Assembly (NCBI GenBank): GCA_001929475.1
Contig: LXFE01000935.1
Span: forward strand, 1 to 37,896
Direction: 5' to 3'
DNA from: Neolecta irregularis DAH-3
Lineage: Eukaryota
DNA: 37,896 bases
Under the pieces are notes generated by a model. That model was given only the letters and a program-made list of their open reading frames with translations. It did not search any database and was not told the DNA's origin. The position numbers and the translations under genes were made by a program. This document shows positions 1,569 to 37,896 of the stretch, piece after piece (the first letter of the stretch is position 1; every line of letters begins with the position of its first letter).

Positions 1569-4500
1569 TTAAGAGACGTATCGTCCATGTTCAACAATAA
1601 ATTTGACCCCCATCATCCATTTTCGACTCTCTTCAATGTGATTGGCCAAAGCTTCAACGACCATTCCATGAGCGGTGTCGTAATCTTTCTTCGCGATGGC
1701 TGTAATTGTATTAGCCTAATGACAGGTTCAAGATATACATTGTGCAATTTGTCGAAGTTCCTCCAATAGACTTGGCGAAATACCTTCCTCGTTATTGAGG
1801 TGATCGAATAAGATGTTCAATTTCTTTTCGGCCTCCACATTTGGCCTTCGGAATTGCGGCTATAGTGTCAATCTGATGAGAAATAAGTTAAGCCTACTGG
1901 AAGGACAGGCTTGATACGGTTCAGCTCTCCGTTGAATACATCAAAGATGATTTTATCGGCAATTAAAATATGGGATCGATCCCCTGGCGCTTAAAGTGAG
2001 TCACATTCAGTTTTAAGACATACGATATTTGCTTTGTAAAATGGGTGGAGTAGACACAGGACGTTGTTGCTGAGTAGTTGGGATACTCACAGGTTTCACT
2101 CCGCCAGCAATTTGAGCAGGCGGGTGCTGTGGGCTATATGGTTGGCTAGATCCTAGGCCAACTTGATGGTGAGGCATATAAGGAGAATTCGTTTGTTGCA
2201 TGGGACCAGATCCGCTGGCTTGTTGCGGAATGTATGGAGAAGGCGCTCCCTGAGGAGGGGGATGCATCATAGGACGTTGAGCTGGGATTTGGGAGGGATT
2301 GTTCATTTGAGAACTGGGCTGCTGTGGAATATATGGACCTGACGATTTCCTCGTCTCCTGACGCGTTGGTTGGTTCGGACCCAGTGGAGGAGGTTGCATA
2401 TTTCTGATAGCCGTTTCAGAGTGAGTGTTCATTTGTTGCGTAGGTGGTTGACCCATGACGTTTTGAGCCTGTAGCTGAACATTGGACATCGGGGGTGATG
2501 ACATGATTTTTTGGGGAGGTCGAGCATTGGTAGGGGGAGGTGCCAATGGTTGAGGTGGAGGTAATTGATTGAACACTCCTGGTTGGTGTCCATAGGCCTG
2601 TGGATTCACCTGTGTGTCTCTTTGATATGGATTTCTTCGACTTGCTGCAGGCATATTTGGTACATCGTTCCATCCCTCCAGCTTAGTCATTAGGGAAGCC
2701 GGTTTCGGCAAAGGATTTGTATTGGCAGTTCCTGAGATAATGGGTTGCTGCGGGGTGTGTACAGACATTTGTTGATGAGGTTGATAATTCATGAATTGCT
2801 GGCCCGTCGGAGGTGGAAGTGCTTGCTGAGATACTGTCATCTGGTTGGGAAATTGAGAAGTATACGGATTTGCGGAGTACTGACTCTGAGATGGAGCCGA
2901 GGGGCCGTATGAGTTGGCTGGATTCGTTGGCGCGTAAGGAGTAAATTGCGGAGCGTATGAACCACGAACACCAGCTGTTGGTTGATATCCCGAAAGTTGT
3001 TCAACGCCCCCTTGACCAGCCGGTCTAGAGTCGGACGCAGAAACTTGTTTCGGTATGAGGTTTTCCCCAATTCGAGTTTTCATTGCGATGGCGGCGGAGA
3101 AAGAGTCTGGAAGAAGACTGATATATTTTTGAGCAGTCGCAAAGTCTCCCTGAGATGCAAGGATATCTGCGTATTCTGCATATTTCTCATGCAAGATATG
3201 AAGATGCTTTCCCGTAGATACCGATTGCATTTTAACAGATTCACTCGAGTTTGTGAAAACGGTTACCCTTTCAATAAGACTCTGGAGGTGTCGCGCGTGT
3301 ATAGTGGTAAGCGAATCTCTATTAGCTGACGCTTCGGACCGAGCATGAGACAGATCCGCTTCCTCATTTTCGTGGACTTCCTGGATCCAAACATTGACAA
3401 CCTTGTCGAGACGAGAGCCGGCGAGGTAGCAAAGAGACGCATAGGATCTTGCACTACGATCCTCATTTGATTGTTCTACGAGCCGATCACCAAGGAAAGC
3501 ACAAAGGTCCGCGAATTCGCCATCCTTCGAGAATGTACAGATGATCGCGAGAATTTCTTTCCAGCTCCCAAGTTCGGCATTTCGAACAACATCCCATAAG
3601 TCATTATCAACAACGGCTGCGATGATTCGTGCGTAAGCTGGTCGAGTTTCTTCTTGTTTGAGATAAGCCAACTGTACCTTTCTTCGGCAACGTTCATTCC
3701 CGCAGAAAGCCAACATGAAAGCATCAGAAAGACGTTCTTCTTTCAGACAAATATCAATGGCGGACTCAAATTCTCCAGTGAGGATCGCCTGTGTGGCAAT
3801 TTTATCTATTTCGGAAATAGAACCCGGAAACACTTTGAAAGTCTCGTTTTTAAAGATTGACGAGGCACTGGTCGATGACTCGAGAAAGTCTTTACTATCT
3901 GCACTACTGAACAGACCGTCTGATTTGTCCTCCGATTTATTTCCTTCTGGTGCAGAATGTTTTTCCACTTCAAGTACTCCGAATTTTGCGGCGATAGCTC
4001 TTTCTAGAATCTCCTTTTTGAAGCCCAGAAATTCTGCGAGAGAAGATTTCAAGCTGCCTTTCGTGAATATTTTCAGCACGAGCCAAGTTTGCTTATCGTT
4101 TTCATCTTTTGCAGCATCAATTCGGTTCTGACAATAATCTTCCAGACTTCCTTGTTCAAGACTTTCCTCAAATGCACGAGCTCGACTGGAAACGTCTGGA
4201 TCGGAAACAAATTTTGTGATCTTGACAAGAAACTTGCGGGATCCATCTGGCTGAATTGTATTGCCAAAACATACCAGATTTCCACCAAACCCTTGAGAAA
4301 CACCGGTGGGTCTTCGAAGCCATTTTGGAGGTTGTTTGAGTGAGAACTCGTCAGCATGCGGATCGGAAAATTCTTTCTGCGCGAAGAAATCCTTTCCATC
4401 AGTTCCCTGACTGGTTTGACCTGCTTGGGTCTTGGGTCGAGTATTCTGAAGACTGTGTATGGTGATTGACCCATCGAATGAAGCATTGGCAAGAAGATCT

Positions 4501-5683: not shown

Positions 5684-6233
5684 TGTTGAACTCTATCAGT
5701 TGGCTCGGATGGTTAGTTATGGTTCAATTTAAAAGAAAGGAAAGATTATACACCAAGTTCAGCGTTCTATGTTGTCAATTTCGTGTAGGGCAATATGTGT
5801 TTATATAGAACTGCGATGTAATAGTCTGGGTGTTGTAAAGAGGCAGGAGAAGATGCCAGATAGCCAACTCCAACACAACTGGAGATGGAGACCGAATACA
5901 TTAGGTATTTTACAGTACTTTATTTGAAATATAGAAACATCTTCTTCAAATGCCTTAGAGGAATCTGGGATTTAGAGCCTACATCTATGTTTCTCATGAT
6001 GAAAAAACGCGTGGAATATTCAACTGGCATATCTCGCAAAAGAAAGTCACAAGCGGCCTATAGCATTTGGATGATACCTAAAATATCTCTGGCCGGCATT
6101 TTGCAAGAACTTGCATTCTAGTCTAAAGGAAACATACAATCTCCATACACCATGTATAGGAACAAAGAATGACTCTCCAGATTGTAACACTGTAGGTGTT
6201 GAAGCTCAAGTACAATAAGATCAGGTTATATTT

Positions 6234-6305
6234 CCTTAATCTAAGCTTGTAGACGTGTAAGCTTCACATACCTTAATCTAAGCTTGTAGACGCGTAAGCC
6301 TACAC
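6234..6305. repeat. 37-bp tandem duplication (2 copies)
   Basis: CCTTAATCTAAGCTTGTAGACG(T/C)GTAAGC at 6234 and 6271. Confidence 0.9.
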
Positions 6306-6869
6306 TAAGATATGTGCATGTAGCCTTTATATACATTTCTATCTAATGTCTTGTTTCTTTCTTCACCACTTGCTGTATTGGTACGGGTATATCCAGGAAA
6401 TAGCCGGGATATACCCTTACATACACCCAAGATGTGGTTGTAGAGTTTTATAGTGACTAGCATAACATAGCCATGATAAAATATAGGATAAAATAAACGA
6501 TTCTTAGATTCTTGGCTTCGACGGGTTAGAACGTATCCGCTCCAGCATTTCGTATAGACAACCAATATAGCCACATGACTTATAGTGGTCAGGTAAAGAT
6601 CATAGAAAAGGAACAAAAATTTTGTTCCCTTAAATGTCCTCCGCAAAATCATTTGTATCATTTCCGTGCCACAAGTTCTTTTGGGTTCTGCTAAGTCTAT
6701 ACGTTCTGAATGAATTATTTTTATCGCTGAATGGAATAAAGGTGTATTGCAATCCTTTCAAACTATGTGATATATCAAAATAAGTTCTTTGTACTACAAG
6801 TTCTGATCAAAAGATGCACTGCCTTGGACTAGAGCCCCCAATACTACTCCATATTTTCTTCAACTGAAC

Positions 6870-9970: not shown

Positions 9971-11327
9971 GGTGAATGTGAATTTGAGATGTTTGAGGGG
10001 GGATGATATACTTCAAGAGCCGGGTGCCAAGAGCTACTGGCTTAGTTGAATATATAATTGCTGCCTAGTCATTGCAAAGCGAAAAAGCGTGGTAGAAGAG
10101 CATAGATAACATCTTTACTATTGTCTCAGGATAAGGGTTGAGGGTGCATCGTTTCTTGTTTTGTCTAAATGATCCTTGTTTGAAAAGGCTACTTCTACAA
10201 GTTCAATTGATTAGCGTGCTAGTTTGTAGGAAGATCGTATTGGAGTGTCATACGAAAAAGTTATATGTAGTATCACAGCGGTTATCTGGTGGGTTTTCTA
10301 TTATTATACGGTTCCTTGGTTTTCTACAATGACATGGTTCATTCTTGTAGATCGATAAGTAGCCCTGTATCTACCCTTTTGTAGAACTGGTGGATAATGC
10401 TCTGTTCATCCATCTAAGAATCAAAGAGTAGTTTTGCTCGGCTTCCTACTTTCCTCTACGAAATAAAATGTTGTGCTCAGTGTCGACGGGGGGTTCGGTT
10501 TCGGGGTCGGGGCGGAGAGTGGCGGAGCGGTCGGTCCAGATTCACTGGACGGCTTGATGGACTGGAGTAAGGATGTAGTCATGTTGTGTTGTGGCCAAGG
10601 GATATTTGTAACCAAGATTTACCAAAATTGCAAGGAAGGAGTCAACACGATTGCAATAAGTGACGAAAAGGCGTAATTTCGAGGCAGAGAAAGACGGGTT
10701 TCGAGAGAGCATTTAAATATTTTTTTTTGGAATATCGCTCCTATTACATATAAAAGAACATTTAGCCCTTGTTCACGTGAAGAAGTCAAAGTAGAAATAT
10801 TTTCAGAGTTTATTGATTTTCTGGTGACTGAGCCCATTGTAGTAGTTGGAGTTTGGGAAAATAATTGGGCATTGGGTCATCAGCCATTTCCCGCAAGGAA
10901 ATAGTTGCGTGATAGTTCTCCTCAGGATGTGTGGTTCAATCTTAAGCGAGTAGAGACAGGGTCCTGCTTGGTTTGTCCCCTCAATCCTATTTTGAATGTT
11001 AATTTGGAGAGCTTTCATAAGGATAGATTTAGCAACTGCAGTGGCAGAAACAGGCAAGTTAAATCCGAATGTTACAAATAGGCCAATTTCATGAAATTCG
11101 GGCTAAAAAGTGACTACAAAATGTGTCCTTACAAATTTGAATTTCCTACAGTGGATATGCAATTTTCCTATTGCGTGAAGATAGTTCTACTTGATACAAT
11201 GCACCCATTTCAGAATGGAGAATGGGAAGATTAAAGATAGGTTTAAGTTTCGCTATTATCTATACCAGTATTGAGAACTCCCGTGCCAAGTCAAAATCCA
11301 TAACCGAAATGATGTGTATGTAAAGAC

Positions 11328-29195: not shown

Positions 29196-30673
29196 CTATA
29201 ACTTCCATCCATGAGTCTTTGCCAACGCAATCTGCTGTCTGACAGCCAACTCCGTGAGTATTTCTTCACTACCTGCACCAACAACCATCACTCTCAAGTC
29301 ACGACTGATCTGCTCTACTCGAGCACCCTTGCCCCCTCTAGAGAATCCCTGTCCTCCGAAAACCTGTTGAGCTTCACGACAAGCGAATTCCAAGTTTCGA
29401 CCAGCTTGAACCTTGACTAGTGCGATTTGTCCAGCAAGGATTTTGTCGATAGTCTCTTTTGTGTTCATTTTAATGCTATAACCCAACTGTTCGATCCAAG
29501 CATGGGTTGATTCTATATGACGGGCTATGTTTCCGAATTTTTCTCGAATAACAGGCTGTTCAAGCAATGGTTTTCCAAAGGTATTACGTTCAGAGGCTGT
29601 ATAATTAACGAGGCCGAAAGCAAGACAAAGAACCATAATTAATAGCATCTTCAAGACAGACCCTCGCCATTCGATTTGCGGTAACAGCCATGAGTAGCCG
29701 TTCATGGTTGAAATCTACATTAGAAAATATAAAAGAGGAGGACATACTACTCATAATAATAGTAAAACCATCATTCTCTTTTCCCAGGAGATATCGAGCA
29801 GGAACTTTGACATCGTCAAAGTTGATGTAAGTGCTTCCACTGGCAGCTACTCCAGAATTATACATCTTTCTCATCCGGACCCCAGGGAGGTTTAATGGAA
29901 TAACCAAGGCGGAGATTCCTCGTCTTCCAGGGCCGCCCGTTCGAACAGCAGTTGTAGCATAATCAGAGAATATGGCATTTGTAATCCATTTTTTGGCTCC
30001 ATTAACAATGTAGTGGTCACCTTTTCGAATGGCAGTAGTTAAGAGGCCTGCAACGTCTGATCCGGCATCTGGCTCTGTTACCGCGAGACATATCTTTTTA
30101 TCTCCTTTGAGAATTGGGTATATAAGCTCATCTTTTATTGATTGAGAACCATAATTTATGACTGGTGGAAGTCCTGGATAATTAGGCAATCATAGAAACG
30201 GCTTTAAAAACCGATAGATCCGCCCATTCCAAACGCCCACATCACTCCCAAGTATCCAATTCGAGACATTTCATCAGCGCAAATGATGTCATGGAATGGA
30301 TCCCAATCTATTCCAATGAGCTGTTATTTTGTTGATAACATCAGCACCTTTTGGCTCGACATTTCCAGGAAGTTTGATGCTGCCGAGATACTGGTGAGGC
30401 ATTGGCCAGATTGAACAAGGAACTACGCCCCTTGCCGCATGACGCTTATAGACCTGATGATAAATAAACACAAGATGCAAAAAACAGTAGTACATCGTCC
30501 GGCAGTTTTCCCGCCATCTCCCATTCTTCGACGTGGGGTCGGAGTTCCTCATCGACATATTTACGCAAAACATTTCGAAGGCGGATATGAGACTCGCTAT
30601 AGTAGGGGCTTTGGCCGGAGTACCAGGCTGGATCTGCCCATGGAGTGGATTCGCCAAAGATCTGACTAGCCAT
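29196..30673 (-). CDS. Acyl-CoA dehydrogenase family protein (5 introns)
   Basis: PWADPAWY..SPYY; ICLAVTEPDAGSDVAG; YIVNGAKKWITN; FNHERL; RNTFGKPLLEQPVIR; AQQVFGGQG; VGAGSEEIL. Confidence 0.95.
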
Positions 30674-30797: not shown

Positions 30798-30935
30798 TGT
30801 AAGAACTAATTTTCTTACCAGACACGTGGTAGATGTTATCGGATTGGCAGGTATATAAACTAGTAGGCTTACGCGTACCTAACTGTAGGGACTCAATAGT
30901 ACCCTATTGTAAGAACTAATGTTCTTACCAGACAC
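30798..30935. repeat. Two 28-bp direct repeats 110 bp apart, each with a dyad core
   Basis: TGTAAGAACTAAT(T/G)TTCTTACCAGACAC at 30798 and 30908. Confidence 0.85.
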
Positions 30936-32222
30936 ATGAGTTGTCAATTACTTAGGTTAGGTATGCCTGTAAATATGACGTACAATCACTTCGGTTAGAA
31001 TATACCGGGTCTTATTCGTACTTTGGCGATCACTTACAGAGTGATTAATTCAGAATAATCAAAGACACGGCGACTTAGCGGGAGGATCTTATCTACACCA
31101 GCTGGAATAAAAGCTAGTGTGATCCTGAGCTATGAAGACGTGCCTACTGGTCTCTGATGATCAATATGACGTATTGCATTCTGAAATGTAACATCGGCAA
31201 GACCATCTGACTTTCTACGTTGTCCTGTCTGGCGACCGATCCGTGAATTTCGTCTTATGACTCAGCTGTTGCTGAGATAAATGTCAAACCTATCCAACAG
31301 TGTCCCAGAGCGGTTTCAATTCTAGCTCAAAGCAATAATTCAAACATCAATGGTCTCTATCTTCCCTACTGACGCCGCCCATAATATATCAACTCTCTAT
31401 TCCGCAGAGAAAGCAGGAGATTATGTGATTCAACAATTGGTCAAATCATTTATGCCGGGGACTACAAGGGATATCTCAAGGGTCACTTTTAGAGAGTCGG
31501 AGAAGGACCACATTCACCCCTATACTTCTCCGTCAAAAGTGATGGGAATCACGATAAAGGATGGGTCAAGGGAAGAAATGATGTCTTCAACTTTGGCGAA
31601 TTGATATGGGGAGGAACTCAAAAGATCGCTGCAATCAATTTGACAAGGAGGGGATGTGAATAACAATTTTCACTGGTTCAATTCAAAAAGGTCACAGAGA
31701 AAATGATTAAATATACCATGCTGGATAACACCATCCTTGCGTTGTGAATGGTGAAGATACTTTTGGAAGAGATGTATACTTATACGCAAATCGTACAGCA
31801 TTATCCGAATGGCCATCAATTTATTCTTTGAAATGAATGGCCGGTGTGAACATTGATAATCGTACCGATAACAGTGAACCCGGTATCGGAAACAATGAAC
31901 GGCATTACCGTTGCAGTCAGCAGCGTAGCAGCACTGAAGCCCTTGGACGAGTTTCATTATCCACTGAATACTCTATCTTTACCAGATCCCTGTGTAGAGA
32001 TGAAATTTCTATCGAGATAACATTTCGAGGGTTTGCACAGCTTACAGAGGATGAAGAGATTCTTTAAAGTAGTATTCAGAGAGAAATGCAATATGGATTA
32101 CAAATCGTTGTTATTCCTGGTTCACACGGCGGTGACGGTGGTGAACAATTTTTTTCGATCGTCTTCCACCTTTTACCGTTTGTATTTTCTTCCACCTTTA
32201 CAACATTCTTCTAGAAGCCAGT

Positions 32223-32964
32223 ATGCTCAGGACTGTTTCTAGGATACGCTTTGCTGCATGTCGATCAACCCCAACATACTTCCGACCTCTTCTCGTCTTA
32301 CGGCCAAACCCCTACTCGACAGAAGCACCCAAACCTGCAGAACCTTTAAAATCGACAGAGGAACTACAGGAGAAGAGGAAAGAAAAGCCCAAGGTAGAAT
32401 CTTCTGGAAAGGCGGAGATTACCGAGGCTGAGTCAAAGGCCAAAGAGATTGCCGAGTTGAAGGTGACTACTATTTAAAAACATAATTCACTGGTCAGGAT
32501 AAATACCTTCGCTCAAAGGCCGATTATCAAAATCTCCAGTACAGAACCGTACGTGAAGTAGCAGCAGCAAAAGACTATGCCATTCAAAAATTTGCCAAAG
32601 ACTTGATTGAGACAGTAGACAATTTTGAACGAGCCTTGAAGACAATCGCACCTGAACACCAGACTGACAGCGCACGAAATAAAGAAGTCGTCGATTTATT
32701 CAATGGCGTAAAAATGACTGAAGAAATAATGATGAAAACTCTTGCGAAACATGGATTGACGAGATATGATGGAATTGGCGAAATATTCGATCCGAATGTT
32801 CATGAGGGTATTTTCTCAAGTCCTGCACCGGATAAAATACCTGGAACCGTGTTTCATTGTGAACAAATGGGATTCATGTTGAATGGACGGGTGATGAGGC
32901 CTGCCAAGGTATGTTGTCACTAGAGCACAATATTGACTGCAAGGTTGGTATCGTAAAGGCCTAA
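32223..32964 (+). CDS. MGE1: Mitochondrial GrpE nucleotide exchange factor (2 introns)
   Basis: Presequence MLRTVSRIR; DKYLRSKADYQNL; YAIQKFAKDLIETVDNFERAL; FDPNVHE; GFMLNGRVMRPAKVGIVKA*. Confidence 0.97.
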
Positions 32965-33181
32965 ATGCACCCTCTTCTTTTTTATTTTGGCATGTTAAAA
33001 CGGTCTCCTCTCAGAATATTGCATTTGGATGATGATTAGATATTTGTATCCTAGATAATTATGTAAACCGATCAACGCAATTCGACAACGTTGCACATCA
33101 TTTCGAACCAGGTTGAAGTGAGTTAACTGGTTGTGTTGCATTTGTTTATTGATTACATATTGTATCAGATAATTATACCGA

Positions 33182-34564
<1,383 letters not shown>

Positions 34565-34609
34565 CAAAGTTTTTGCGCCAGATACGACAACCCTCCGATT
34601 GTCACTCTG
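34565..34609. promoter_or_regulatory. 45-bp divergent spacer between the MSF1 and MRPL16 start codons (putative bidirectional promoter region)
   Basis: ATG on - at 34564 and ATG on + at 34610. Both begin plausible mitochondrial presequences. Confidence 0.55.
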
Positions 34610-35284
34610 ATGCGACATTTCAGTTTGATATTTTCTCGGCCGCGCTTTGAGAGAATATCTCACTGTCGGAGTTCACATCAATATGGTTCTACGATTACAG
34701 ATCATTCTTACTTTAGCTCCCAAAACAGTGGTTCACAGACGAGCTCAAAAGGGTCGGATACCCGTACCAAGCGGCGGCAGCACCAAAGGAATGACCTTGG
34801 AACACGGAGATTTTGGGTTGAGGTTAATCGATGAAGGCCGCAGGATATCTGCGAAGCAATTCCAAGTATATCAAATTGAAACGAGAACCGACTGTAGGTC
34901 GCCGAGGCTACGATTAAACGGGTTATCAAAGTCAATAGAGAAGCGAAATGTTATTTGCGGGTAGCCACGCATCTCGCTGTATGCACAAAGGGAAACGAGG
35001 TACGCGTATCATTTGCTATATGGTGACACAATAGAGTCGAATGGGTAAAGGGAAAGGGGGATTTGACCACTGGGCAGCTCGGTTTGGCAGCTCGGTATGT
35101 ATCTAACAATAGAGTGTCACACGGTAAAATCACCTTTGAAATTGGTATGTATTCGTGCGTTTGCATTTAACGTGTAGGCGGTGGAGATATTCGTGAGGAA
35201 ATTGCAAGAGACGCTTTACGTCAAGCAGGGGCAAAATTGCCTGGAAGACATCAATTTGTCAAGCGACAAGTACCTAAATTATAA
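34610..35284 (+). CDS. MRPL16: Mitochondrial ribosomal protein uL16m (5 introns of 31-35 nt)
   Basis: Spliced: HQYAPKTVVHRRAQKGRIPVPSGGSTKG...[25 protein letters not shown]...EEIARDALRQAGAKLPG. Confidence 0.95.
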
Positions 35285-35296
35285 TAACTGTAATGC

Positions 35297-35576
35297 ACAC
35301 TTTAAGTCAAACGGGTGTAACTAATATTCTGACACTTTACGAAAACGGGTGTAACTAATATTCTGAAACTTTACGTCAAACGGGTGTAACTAATATTCTG
35401 ACACTTTACGTCAACGGGTGTAACTAAATTCTGACACTTTACGTCAACGGGTGTAACTAATATTCTAACGTTTTACGTCAAACAGGTGCAAATTTAGTAC
35501 TGTTATTCAGTTAAATACATTTTACGTCAAGCAGGTGCAAATTGCCAATGTCAAGCGAAAGTAGCTAACTATAATA
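35297..35576. repeat. 33-35 bp minisatellite (5 close copies plus 2 divergent ones) related to the MRPL16 last exon
   Basis: ACACTTTACGTCAAACGGGTGTAACTAATATTCTG units at 35297, 35332, 35366, 35401 and 35434. Distal copies (35468, 35517) resemble the exon sequence GCTTTACGTCAAGCAGGGGCAAAATTGCC. Confidence 0.9.
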
Positions 35577-35710
35577 TACTATTCAGTTTATATAGAATGA
35601 CAGACACAGACAGACACTTACTCACTTATTACAACAGACACTTTACTAATTACACACTATCGCGTTCAAACTGGGATACTTGGGAAAGTATACTTGGGAG
35701 CGGTTCGGTG

Positions 35711-35830
35711 ACGGTAGCACGAGGGAGGACGGAGGGTTTATAACGGAGCACGAGGGAGGACGGAGGGTTTATAACGGAGCACGAGGGGGCGGAGGGTTTA
35801 TAACGGAGCACGAGGGGGCGGAGGGTTAAC
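35711..35830. repeat. G-rich 30-31 bp minisatellite (~4 copies)
   Basis: ACGGAGCACGAGGG(AGGA/GGG)CGGAGGGTTTATA repeated. Confidence 0.92.
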
Positions 35831-35845
35831 GAGAACTGAGTTGTC

Positions 35846-35922
35846 ACGTTAGGCGTGATATTCGTGAGGAAATAGGACGCTTGTCAAGCATGCAAATTGC
35901 CGAGACAAAATATACAGTAATT
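35846..35922 (+). pseudogene. Deletion-eroded copy of the MRPL16 last exon, including its splice acceptor
   Basis: ACGTTAGGCGTGATATTCGTGAGGAAATAGGACGCTTGTCAAGCATGCAAATTGCCGAGACA aligns by eye with ~35170-35250, almost entirely through small deletions. Confidence 0.8.
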
Positions 35923-36059
35923 CGGCTTAGACACTCGACAACATTACATGCATCGCAACGGGATACATAGAGGATCAGGTGCGTGGGACGAGGTTAAAAG
36001 CACGTTTGCAAAAAGTCCGCACACAACCTTTAACCGCCAAAAGCCGCAAAGCCGCCGAT

Positions 36060-37896
36060 ATGGTCCCACCCAGGCCGGAGAATGTAATAAAGGTAGGTCT
36101 ATTGCAGGTGGAGCTAATATGTAGCGCGCCGAAGGTTTATTTGATTCATGCTGTACTGATATTAGAATTGAGCGCGGTGGGTCAACAGGGCGCTGCTCTG
36201 GAAGCGCTACACTCTGCGCTGAAAAAGCCGCGAGGAGCAGCGTTATCAGTTGTTGAGCCTATCGCTTTACGATTTATTGAACTGTGTACTGATTTGCGCA
36301 AGGGCAAGGTTGCGAAAGAGGGGTTGTATGACTATCGCAAGGTAGCTCAAAACACGAATATCCAGTCTCTGGAGGCAAGATTGATTCTAGGCAAGCTAAT
36401 TTCAGCTTGTAGTCAAGACGTTTTTAGGCCAGGCGGAGAAGAAGGTGATGCAGGCTCAAGCCAAGGCGGACAAACTTTCTGTGGACAAGATTGAAGATTT
36501 AGAAGCGACGGAGACGCCGGAGAGCATCATGCTAAGTCTTGTATCGAACGAGCAGTCGAAAGACCGCACGGACCGGGAGCTGGTTACACCGTGGCTCAAG
36601 TTTCTGTGGGAGGCGTATCGCACGGTGCTGGAGACGCTCAAGAACAATTCACGGCTGGAGCAGATATACCAGGAGACGGCGCACCAGGCGTTCAACTTTT
36701 GCCTGCGGTATTCGCGCAAGGCCGAGTTTCGGCGCCTGTGCGATCTTTTGCGCAACCATCTTGGGAATGTGTCGAAATACACGGGCCAGGCGCACTCGAT
36801 CAATCTGAGCGATGCGGACACGCTGCAGCGGCACCTGGACACGCGCTTCACGCAGCTGAACGCAGCGGCGGATCTTGAGCTGTGGCAGGAAGCGTACCGG
36901 TCTGTGGAGGACGTGCACGCGCTGCTTACGATGTCGAAGCGGCCGCCCAAGCCGAGCATGATGGCGAACTACTACGAGAAGCTGGTGAGCATCTTTTTGG
37001 TGAGCGAGAACTACCTGTTCCATGCGGCGGCGTGGAGCCGGTACCTCAGCCTGATGCGAAACAAGATCAGCGAGCAGCACGAGTTCCAAAAGATGGCGTC
37101 TGTGGTGCTGCTGTCTGCGCTGGCGATCCCGGCAGCGAGCACGGCGCGGAGCAGGGGGCTTGCGGCCGAGAACGACGACGCCAAGCACAAGAGCAACCGG
37201 CTGTCGGTGCTGCTGGCGATGGGCAAGACGCCGGTGCGGGCGGGGCTGCTGCAGGACGCGCTGAGCAAGGGGCTGCTGAAGGCGGCGAGTGCGGAGCTGC
37301 AGCAGCTGTATGCCCTGGTCGAGACCGAGTTCCACCCGCTGAGCATCTGCGCGAAAGCGGCGCCGCTGGTGGAGAAGCTTGCGCTGGACGCGGATCTGCA
37401 GCCGTACATCCGGCCGCTGCACCAGGTGATCCTCACGCGGCTGCTGCAGCAGCTCGCGCAGGTGTACGCCAACGTGCAGCTGGGCTATGTTGCGCAGCTG
37501 GCGGCGCCGTTTGGCCTGACGGGGATGCAGATTGAGCAGTTTATGATGGCGGCGTGCAAGAAGGGCGAGCTGGCGGTGCGCATCGACCACGCGCGGGGGG
37601 CTGTCGAGTTTGGGGTTGATGTCTATGGGGGGCGAGCGGGGAGCCGGATATCGCGGGCGGGCAAAGCGCTCCGAGTGTTTGTGGAGTCTCTCCCGCGCTC
37701 GCACCCGCCGCCCGACCTCGAACACGACCACTCCCTCGACCACTCCCTCGAACACTCCCTCGAACACTCCCTCGAACACTCGCTCTCCCTCGAACACGAA
37801 CAAGCACTCGCGCGCAAAGAAACAATCCGCCGCCGCCGCGAGGCCGTCGAGAGCCTGCGCAGCCGCGAGGAGCGCGATCTCGCGCAGAAGCGGCTG
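36060..37896 (+). CDS. TIF32: Translation initiation factor eIF3 subunit a, 3'-partial (introns 36093-36124, 36135-36165, 36375-36405)
   Basis: RPENVIKRAEEL; DLEATETPESIML; DRTDRELVTPWLKFLWEAYRTVL; PCI domain (ETEFHPLSIC; LLQQLAQVY). The frame stays open to the window end, so it is absent from the ORF track. Confidence 0.97.
37717..37800 (+). repeat. Coding 12-bp minisatellite (CTCGAACACTCC) encoding LEHS repeats in eIF3a
   Basis: In-frame translation DLEHDHSLDHSLEHSLEHSLEHSLSLEHE. Confidence 0.9.

Follow-up and report, generated by a model that had tools for sequence, protein, structure and literature searches.

In filamentous ascomycetes, RIP changes duplicated DNA by C-to-T transitions. 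Short segments repeated head to tail form minisatellites or VNTRs, a class whose units range from about 10 to 100 bp, occur in several similar copies and differ in copy number among individuals. Among the closest described events are microhomology-mediated tandem duplications (MTDs), in which a short single-copy segment is doubled head to tail and sometimes carried beyond two copies, and which the portion of PMC13167724 drawn on here describes as frequent, neutral for the most part and under-represented in coding regions. Mutations left by break repair in Saccharomyces cerevisiae show -1 changes in excess over +1 changes and 12-fold more deletions than duplications, the deletions being mostly -1 events in runs or longer events near 56 bp that have some 6 bp of microhomology, all of this for a selected Ura- spectrum and as given in part of PMC12891019. 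For mutation-accumulation lines, the part of PMC6330053 considered here gives substitution-to-indel ratios of 17:1 to 33:1 in S. cerevisiae and of 4:1 or 1:1, insertion-biased, in S. pombe. In the literature searched, which held mostly papers outside subscription, we found nothing on gene-end arrays in Neolecta and nothing on a deletion-dominated erosion of stop-spanning duplicates; the passages of PMC5309816 considered here contain no repeat analysis. The arrays that we describe here, each starting inside the last coding bases of a gene and running past its stop codon, belong on their testable features to the tandem-duplication/minisatellite class and are an ordinary, rare kind of duplication; the unusual part is that deletions in the copies are about as frequent as substitutions.

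The window, the whole stretch of DNA analysed, is a 37,896-nucleotide contig of Neolecta irregularis DAH-3 (LXFE01000935.1) and corresponds to the entire scaffold G000:C1193 of a 14.18 Mb assembly in 4542 contigs. Toward its right end, a gene finder self-trained on 746,520 bases with GT-AG introns recovers MGE1 (+), MSF1 (-), MRPL16 (+) and the start of eIF3a (+); it was verified on MSF1, MRPL16, MGE1 and VTA1 only, predicts too many short genes and breaks down in GC islands. MRPL16, encoding mitochondrial ribosomal L16, is modelled on the forward strand at 34683-35284 with five exons (34683-34865, 34898-34999, 35035-35081, 35113-35144 and 35178-35284), the last of which contains the stop codon TAA at 35282-35284; Pfam Ribosomal_L16 (PF00252) matches exons 1 and 5 with E-values of 3e-5 and 3e-4, both below the curated cut-off. 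An 11-base direct repeat at 35074-35099 doubles the donor of intron 3, so that this intron has two candidate 5' splice sites, separated by 13 bases. MSF1, the mitochondrial Phe-tRNA ligase gene (33182-34618, reverse strand), is supported by the gene model and by 100% identity to the Neolecta irregularis protein P0001 across 91% of the query ORF, and is oriented divergently from MRPL16 and convergently with MGE1, whose stop lies at 32964. MGE1, MSF1 and MRPL16 (32223-35284) are thus three neighbouring genes, each for a mitochondrial protein. They are followed on the forward strand by eIF3a (36060-37896; Pfam PF22591, E-value of 2e-116), which enters a GC island: at its four-fold sites G prevails up to about 37690 (60/86, 60/73 and 41/58) and C afterwards (27/38), making the right end of the window a G-left/C-right island. 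Inside it (36450-37896), eIF3a carries, close to where G gives way to C, an in-frame repeat of 12 bp (37725-37785), and upstream of it a 31-base intron (36373-36403) that is skipped in the public run X2 and was overlooked by the gene model.

The sequence downstream of MRPL16 is a head-to-tail array, all on the forward strand, with the gene's own end as its first unit. This unit 0 (35211-35296) comprises the 74 last coding bases including the stop and 12 bases of the 3' flank. It is followed by five homogenised minisatellite units of 33-35 bp (35297-35467), the most shortened form of unit 0, by a 49-bp intermediate, unit C (35468-35516), and by copy B (35517-35596), an approximately 80-bp deleted copy of the exon end and flank with a tail at 35636-35705. 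Beyond an unrelated G-rich minisatellite (35711-35827; TRF, 31 bp, 3.9 copies), which has no homology to the eIF3a leader, lies copy A (35846-35907), which includes the end of the intron together with the exon. An earlier note on this DNA, made from the letters alone, had proposed just such a graded series of eroded last-exon copies, with a deleted copy at 35517-35576, an intermediate at 35468-35495, five short units at 35297-35467 and a further copy at 35846-35922 that keeps the intron acceptor, and this description stands.

Aligned locally to 35150-35296 and compared with 1000 dinucleotide shuffles, copies A (35846-35907) and B (35521-35580) both score 71, well above the shuffle maxima of 43 and 44, respectively. 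Unit C (35468-35495) scores 40 against the exon (shuffle maximum 35) and 46 against copy B (null maximum 32), while the five short units, of 35, 34, 35, 33 and 34 bp, score 25, 19, 27, 29 and 27, values reached by 4, 132, 3, 0 and 2 of the shuffles. Only copies A and B stand alone, since 500 shuffles give a maximum of 52 when 1 kb is searched, and a score of 45 is attained by 68 other pieces of the window; unit C and the five short units are tied into the array by their position and by their likeness to C or B and to one another. The score of the third short unit against unit C is reached by 1/2000 shuffles and that against copy B by 2/2000, the exact word CTTTACGTCAA is present in three of the five, and TRF reports a period of 34 with 5.6 copies and 88% matches.

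Copy A has been reduced from 81 bp to 62 through 6-10 deletions and 1-5 substitutions. The sequence upstream of it has an anchored score of 10 against the intron end, a value reached by 5/300 random 20-mers, and of 2 against exon 4, which supports the duplication at the DNA level claimed in the earlier note and led us to reject a processed, cDNA-derived retrocopy; no poly(A) tract was found at the unit ends in the unit sequences examined. Copy A derives from a larger duplication, because it keeps the intron end and because its tail (35929-35995) weakly matches that of copy B, with an alignment score of 40 that is reached by 16/2000 shuffles. Judging from this likeness, the tail behind copy B is probably the original 3' flank, duplicated along with the exon end. 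A further extension of copy A into intron 4 and exon 4 was rejected (1210/2000 shuffles as good). Copies A, B and C all lack the same A and all differ from the gene by the same G/T change, and their other deletions are not shared, which shows that the erosion was stepwise.

In the public run X1, contigs with a depth near 400-480x agree base for base with copies A, B and C: there are 0 differences over 35431-35745, including record 5 over copy B, and 0 other letters over 35798-36991, where the one gap, at 36048, lies outside the copies. The five short units are covered in part, also with 0 differences. The exact match excludes a noisy consensus, which the earlier note had feared, as the source of the MRPL16 copies; X1 is the sole DNA run covering this locus and may be the assembly's own data, hence not an independent sample. 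The base at 36048 is absent from both public runs and is likely an assembly error. Run X2, labelled 'DNA?' although it skips introns, covers neither MSF1 nor MRPL16, which speaks neither for nor against the copies, and a 62-base piece of it on the minisatellite (depth 6.8; 4 other letters, 5 gaps) was left out.

The opposite outer end of the divergent pair carries a repeat of its own terminal exon as well, as the earlier note had also claimed. The MSF1-end repeat is real and collapsed in the scaffold: over the array as assembled (33019-33181, reverse strand), X1 depth is 2072 against about 410 (about five times), and a joint leads back from 33151 to 33034. Its unit, of about 110-127 bp, consists of the last 76 coding bases and a spacer that is 3' flank; a reading of the unit as intron 3 plus last exon was rejected, as the spacer matches the intron no better than shuffles do (747 and 1533 of 2000). 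Within the units, gene-like variants are combined with deleted ones in a mosaic. A further 4.5 units, with a TRF period of 127 that exceeds the usual unit range of minisatellites, lie on the reverse strand before an N gap at the start of the scaffold (1-550). The scaffolder placed the overflow of the collapsed array there (1-550 versus 33019-33257), 32 kb from its true place; a similar duplication of start and end is seen in L020 (1-179 versus 3891-4069).

A third stop-spanning array is found on other contigs, at a VTA1-like gene (Pfam Vta1_C). Its 80-bp unit combines 62 coding bases with 18 further bases, is present in 7 assembled copies over three contigs, and is reported by TRF on one of them with a period of 76 and 2.6 copies. 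The flanks seen have a GC content of 0.42-0.48 and hold no GC island. A predicted ORF without homology support (L154 789-1256, contig G000:C490) runs convergently on VTA1, with the two stops 7 bases apart; if it is real, the repeat unit would cover both gene ends.

At all three loci the copies are direct and adjacent, and at VTA1 and MSF1 the distal units run into unique flank, as expected of DNA-level duplication. The head-to-tail units and the periods at MRPL16 and VTA1 are those of minisatellites, and the doubling of a short single-copy segment, extended beyond two copies, is that of the MTDs in the portion of PMC13167724 cited above. VTA1 further shares with these a microhomology arm at the junction, of 3 bases (ATG), whereas the junctions at MRPL16 and MSF1, which are eroded, have 0-2 bases and no evident arm. 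The gene-end arrays differ from MTDs in that the unit straddles a stop codon and in that small deletions are as many as substitutions. Short tandem duplication also occurs at L014 159-258, where a 35-bp duplicate starts in a tRNA-Lys-like fragment that matches a tRNA of L029.

Counted as distinct changes against the three gene ends, the copies show 18 deletions, 18 substitutions (3 of which are alignment-end noise) and 0 insertions with strict gaps, and 23 deletions, 9 substitutions and 1 insertion with loose gaps, in agreement with the erosion mainly by micro-deletions that the earlier note had described. The deletions are of 1-11 bp, mostly 1-5 bp, and the 18 strict ones divide into 7 blunt, 5 with microhomology of 1-3 bp and 6 of the slippage type. 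Simulated substitution-only copies yield 0.03-0.65 called deletions on average. One comparison is with a dispersed kynureninase pseudogene, which keeps its introns and, like its gene, lies on L155/L156 (G000:C966 and C2741). A non-processed copy, it resembles the gene-end copies in its DNA-level origin and its excess of deletions over insertions (7:0); however, with 85 substitutions it has a substitution-to-deletion ratio of 12:1, against about 1:1 here (p=3e-7), so that deletions per substitution in the gene-end copies are about 12 times higher, and it was found by protein family and is hence free of gap-detection bias. The 23 dispersed pairs collected show 54 gaps per 341 mismatches (p=1e-6 versus the gene-end copies), and 17 other non-coding arrays show 23:85, or 0.27 indels per substitution (p=0.002), two contrasts that are inflated by the under-detection of gap-rich pairs in BLAST and TRF. 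These other arrays are themselves indel-richer than the pseudogene, about three times (p=0.009); being significantly below the gene-end copies, they indicate that the tandem context explains only part of the deletion excess.

The spectrum rests on three loci, two of which had been selected in the earlier note. The third, VTA1, was not picked for its deletions and shows deletions and substitutions at 4:4 (p=0.005 versus the pseudogene), all these deletions being read from assembled copies and lying in runs or repeats. The deletion-dominated erosion of the gene-end copies is a genuine anomaly in a small sample. RIP has in common with it that linked duplicates diverge faster than, or differently from, other DNA, but the excess here lies in deletions, and RIP was rejected with C-to-T changes in 1/9 firm substitutions. 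Transcription-associated deletions that depend on Top1 and ribonucleotides are of 2-5 bp and remove one unit of a short tandem repeat. Among the deletions of at least 2 bp in the strict alignment, only 1/11, a 3-bp loss at VTA1, takes out an entire repeat unit, which does not match this signature. A mutator phenotype from loss of mismatch repair or RNase H2 was rejected as well, because the genes are present (6 MutS_V loci, 3 of MutL type, one of them below cut-off, and 1 RNase HII, alongside 2 Ku, all as presence only) and because dispersed copies are dominated by substitutions.

In our judgement, the probable explanation overall is neutral tandem duplication followed by erosion through slippage-prone repair turnover. 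In this scenario, a rare and probably neutral duplication of 80-130 bp at the DNA level would start in the last exon and end just past the stop, and the duplicate would survive because the protein made from the first unit is still complete. Birth may have been mediated by microhomology, as suggested by the arm at VTA1. Once in tandem, the units would expand and exchange, to judge from the mosaic variants and the collapsed depth. Copies have lost pieces of 1-11 bp stepwise, which took the MRPL16 unit from 86 to 80, 49 and 35 bp, with the 35-bp form amplified after shrinking. By analogy with break repair in yeast, the excess of deletions could arise during recombinational repair synthesis among the repeats, the new strand slipping forward; neither a dedicated 3'-end system nor a function would be required. 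An origin by tandem duplication and survivorship seems very probable to us, and repair slippage as the cause of the deletion spectrum is put forward tentatively, at a little short of an even chance. The deletion polarity agrees with that of the S. cerevisiae repair spectrum as far as given in PMC12891019, and the fit is partial: the larger deletions there average 56 bp with about 6 bp of microhomology, as against mostly 1-5 bp here with 7/18 blunt, 5 with microhomology and 6 of the slippage type, and the indel content of the other arrays in this genome exceeds that of the pseudogene only about threefold.

An alternative attributes the arrays to error-prone repair linked to transcription termination, in which breaks or R-loops arising where transcripts end, most of all between convergent genes, would cause the gene end to be re-copied and leave small-deletion scars. 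The earlier note had raised this possibility and proposed aligning every terminal exon to its downstream DNA. Our final screen covered 140 pieces totalling 802,355 bases, or some 6% of the genome, including 40 contig-end pieces, which added no new stop-spanning case; the sample favours kinase-bearing and longer contigs, gene ends were taken from our own gene models, and the rates may be underestimates because arrays break contigs. Stop-spanning copies occur at 3/414 predicted 3' ends (MSF1, MRPL16 and VTA1; 1/394 outside the window) and at 0/419 5' ends, a difference that favours 3' ends but is not significant (Fisher p=0.12). Left out of these counts were a near-identical pair across an N gap (L076, score 280) and two low-complexity, C-rich 5' matches (L132, L117). 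The geometry is also in favour of this reading, since each of the three units takes in the final 62-76 coding bases and extends 12-51 bases beyond the stop, as are the convergent neighbours of two of the genes (MSF1 faces MGE1, and VTA1 the predicted ORF described above) and the richness in deletions of gene-end copies relative to other arrays. However, MRPL16 is not convergent, non-coding tandem arrays are no more frequent near stops than near starts (11 versus 17, p=0.45), and 3' scores in an 80-nt/300-nt test are overall not above those of permuted pairs (p=0.62), a 150-nt/1-kb test giving a slight shift at 3' and 5' ends alike. The same geometry is, moreover, predicted without a special mechanism, because a duplication running past the stop leaves the protein intact; its mirror image would put a decoy ATG between promoter and gene, so that survivorship may account for the asymmetry between 3' and 5' ends. 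We therefore consider a link to termination unlikely. Stop-spanning duplication recurs but is rare, with no evidence of targeting to termini: of the recurrent cycle of duplication, erosion and amplification at gene 3' ends that had been suggested, the recurrence is borne out by VTA1, but neither a general process nor a 3' excess is.

A point that counts against duplication and survivorship is that MSF1 and MRPL16 are adjacent, making up two of the three cases; independence does not predict this, and the window was selected for the pair. A local break hotspot would account for it, with the pair flanking a GC/skew island and repeated break repair there producing both arrays and their deletions. 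In line with this, the MRPL16 array lies 0.6-1.0 kb from the edge of the island at the end of the window, and non-coding arrays number 126 per 100 kb in islands, 23 within 1.5 kb of them and 8.4 far away. Yet low-skew arrays show no excess in the flanks (3.3 versus 5.6 per 100 kb), the MSF1 array lies some 3 kb more distant from the island, the flanks seen at VTA1 hold none, and that islands are break sites is an assumption, all of which makes a hotspot quite unlikely. To a similar degree improbable is a homology- or termination-triggered process in Neolecta that would erode closely linked duplicates by repeated deletions of 1-5 bp in place of point mutations, as a deletion-based counterpart of RIP. 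If it existed, it would be visible at gene ends because one copy, frozen by selection, gives the ancestral state, and by trimming duplicated units it would give rise to new minisatellites and help the genome to stay compact.

We regard it as very unlikely that the copies are kept for regulation, be it as binding sites for proteins in 3' UTRs, as spacing between convergent genes or as an upstream ORF in the eIF3a leader. Copy A does sit in that leader, as a spliced eIF3a contig of run X2 (record 11), which skips the eIF3a introns, starts at 35790 and contains it; its deletions created an ATG at 35890 and with it a 26-codon upstream ORF (35890-35970). The units at both mitochondrial-protein genes also contain a TGTA-led word, which we take to resemble PUF sites. 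However, this word is present in only 2/5 full MSF1 copies, unit number varies freely, deletions break the frame, and an Rfam search of 32900-36200 gave 0 matches at E<=1. A second upstream ATG is found in the eIF3a leader at 35948.

An assembly or sequencing artefact is barely credible: the assembly is indeed fragmented, arrays are collapsed or split over contigs and the VTA1 deletions all lie in runs, but the X1 contigs largely refute it for MRPL16, deletions of 2-11 bp outside runs are untypical of base-calling errors, and the uncertainty is confined to copy number and order.

The arrays are of value as a natural experiment: with a working gene end as the first unit, the direction of each change in a copy can be read, and at MRPL16 the stages by which an 86-bp exon duplicate became a 35-bp minisatellite are still present. 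Extrapolated to the approximately 5,500 genes that we assume for Neolecta irregularis, the screen would correspond to 14-40 such loci in the genome (95% range 0-117). If the spectrum holds across them, they would show directly the mutation spectrum with which tandem repeats turn over in a wild fungus, or would instead reveal a repeat-directed deletion process.

Elsewhere in the window, we observed a 31-bp direct repeat (30798-30938), 94% identical and 110 bp apart, upstream of a gene ending at 30673, and members of dispersed non-coding repeat families at 6190-6425 and 11041-11146, which also occur in L059, L065, L066, L015 and L085.
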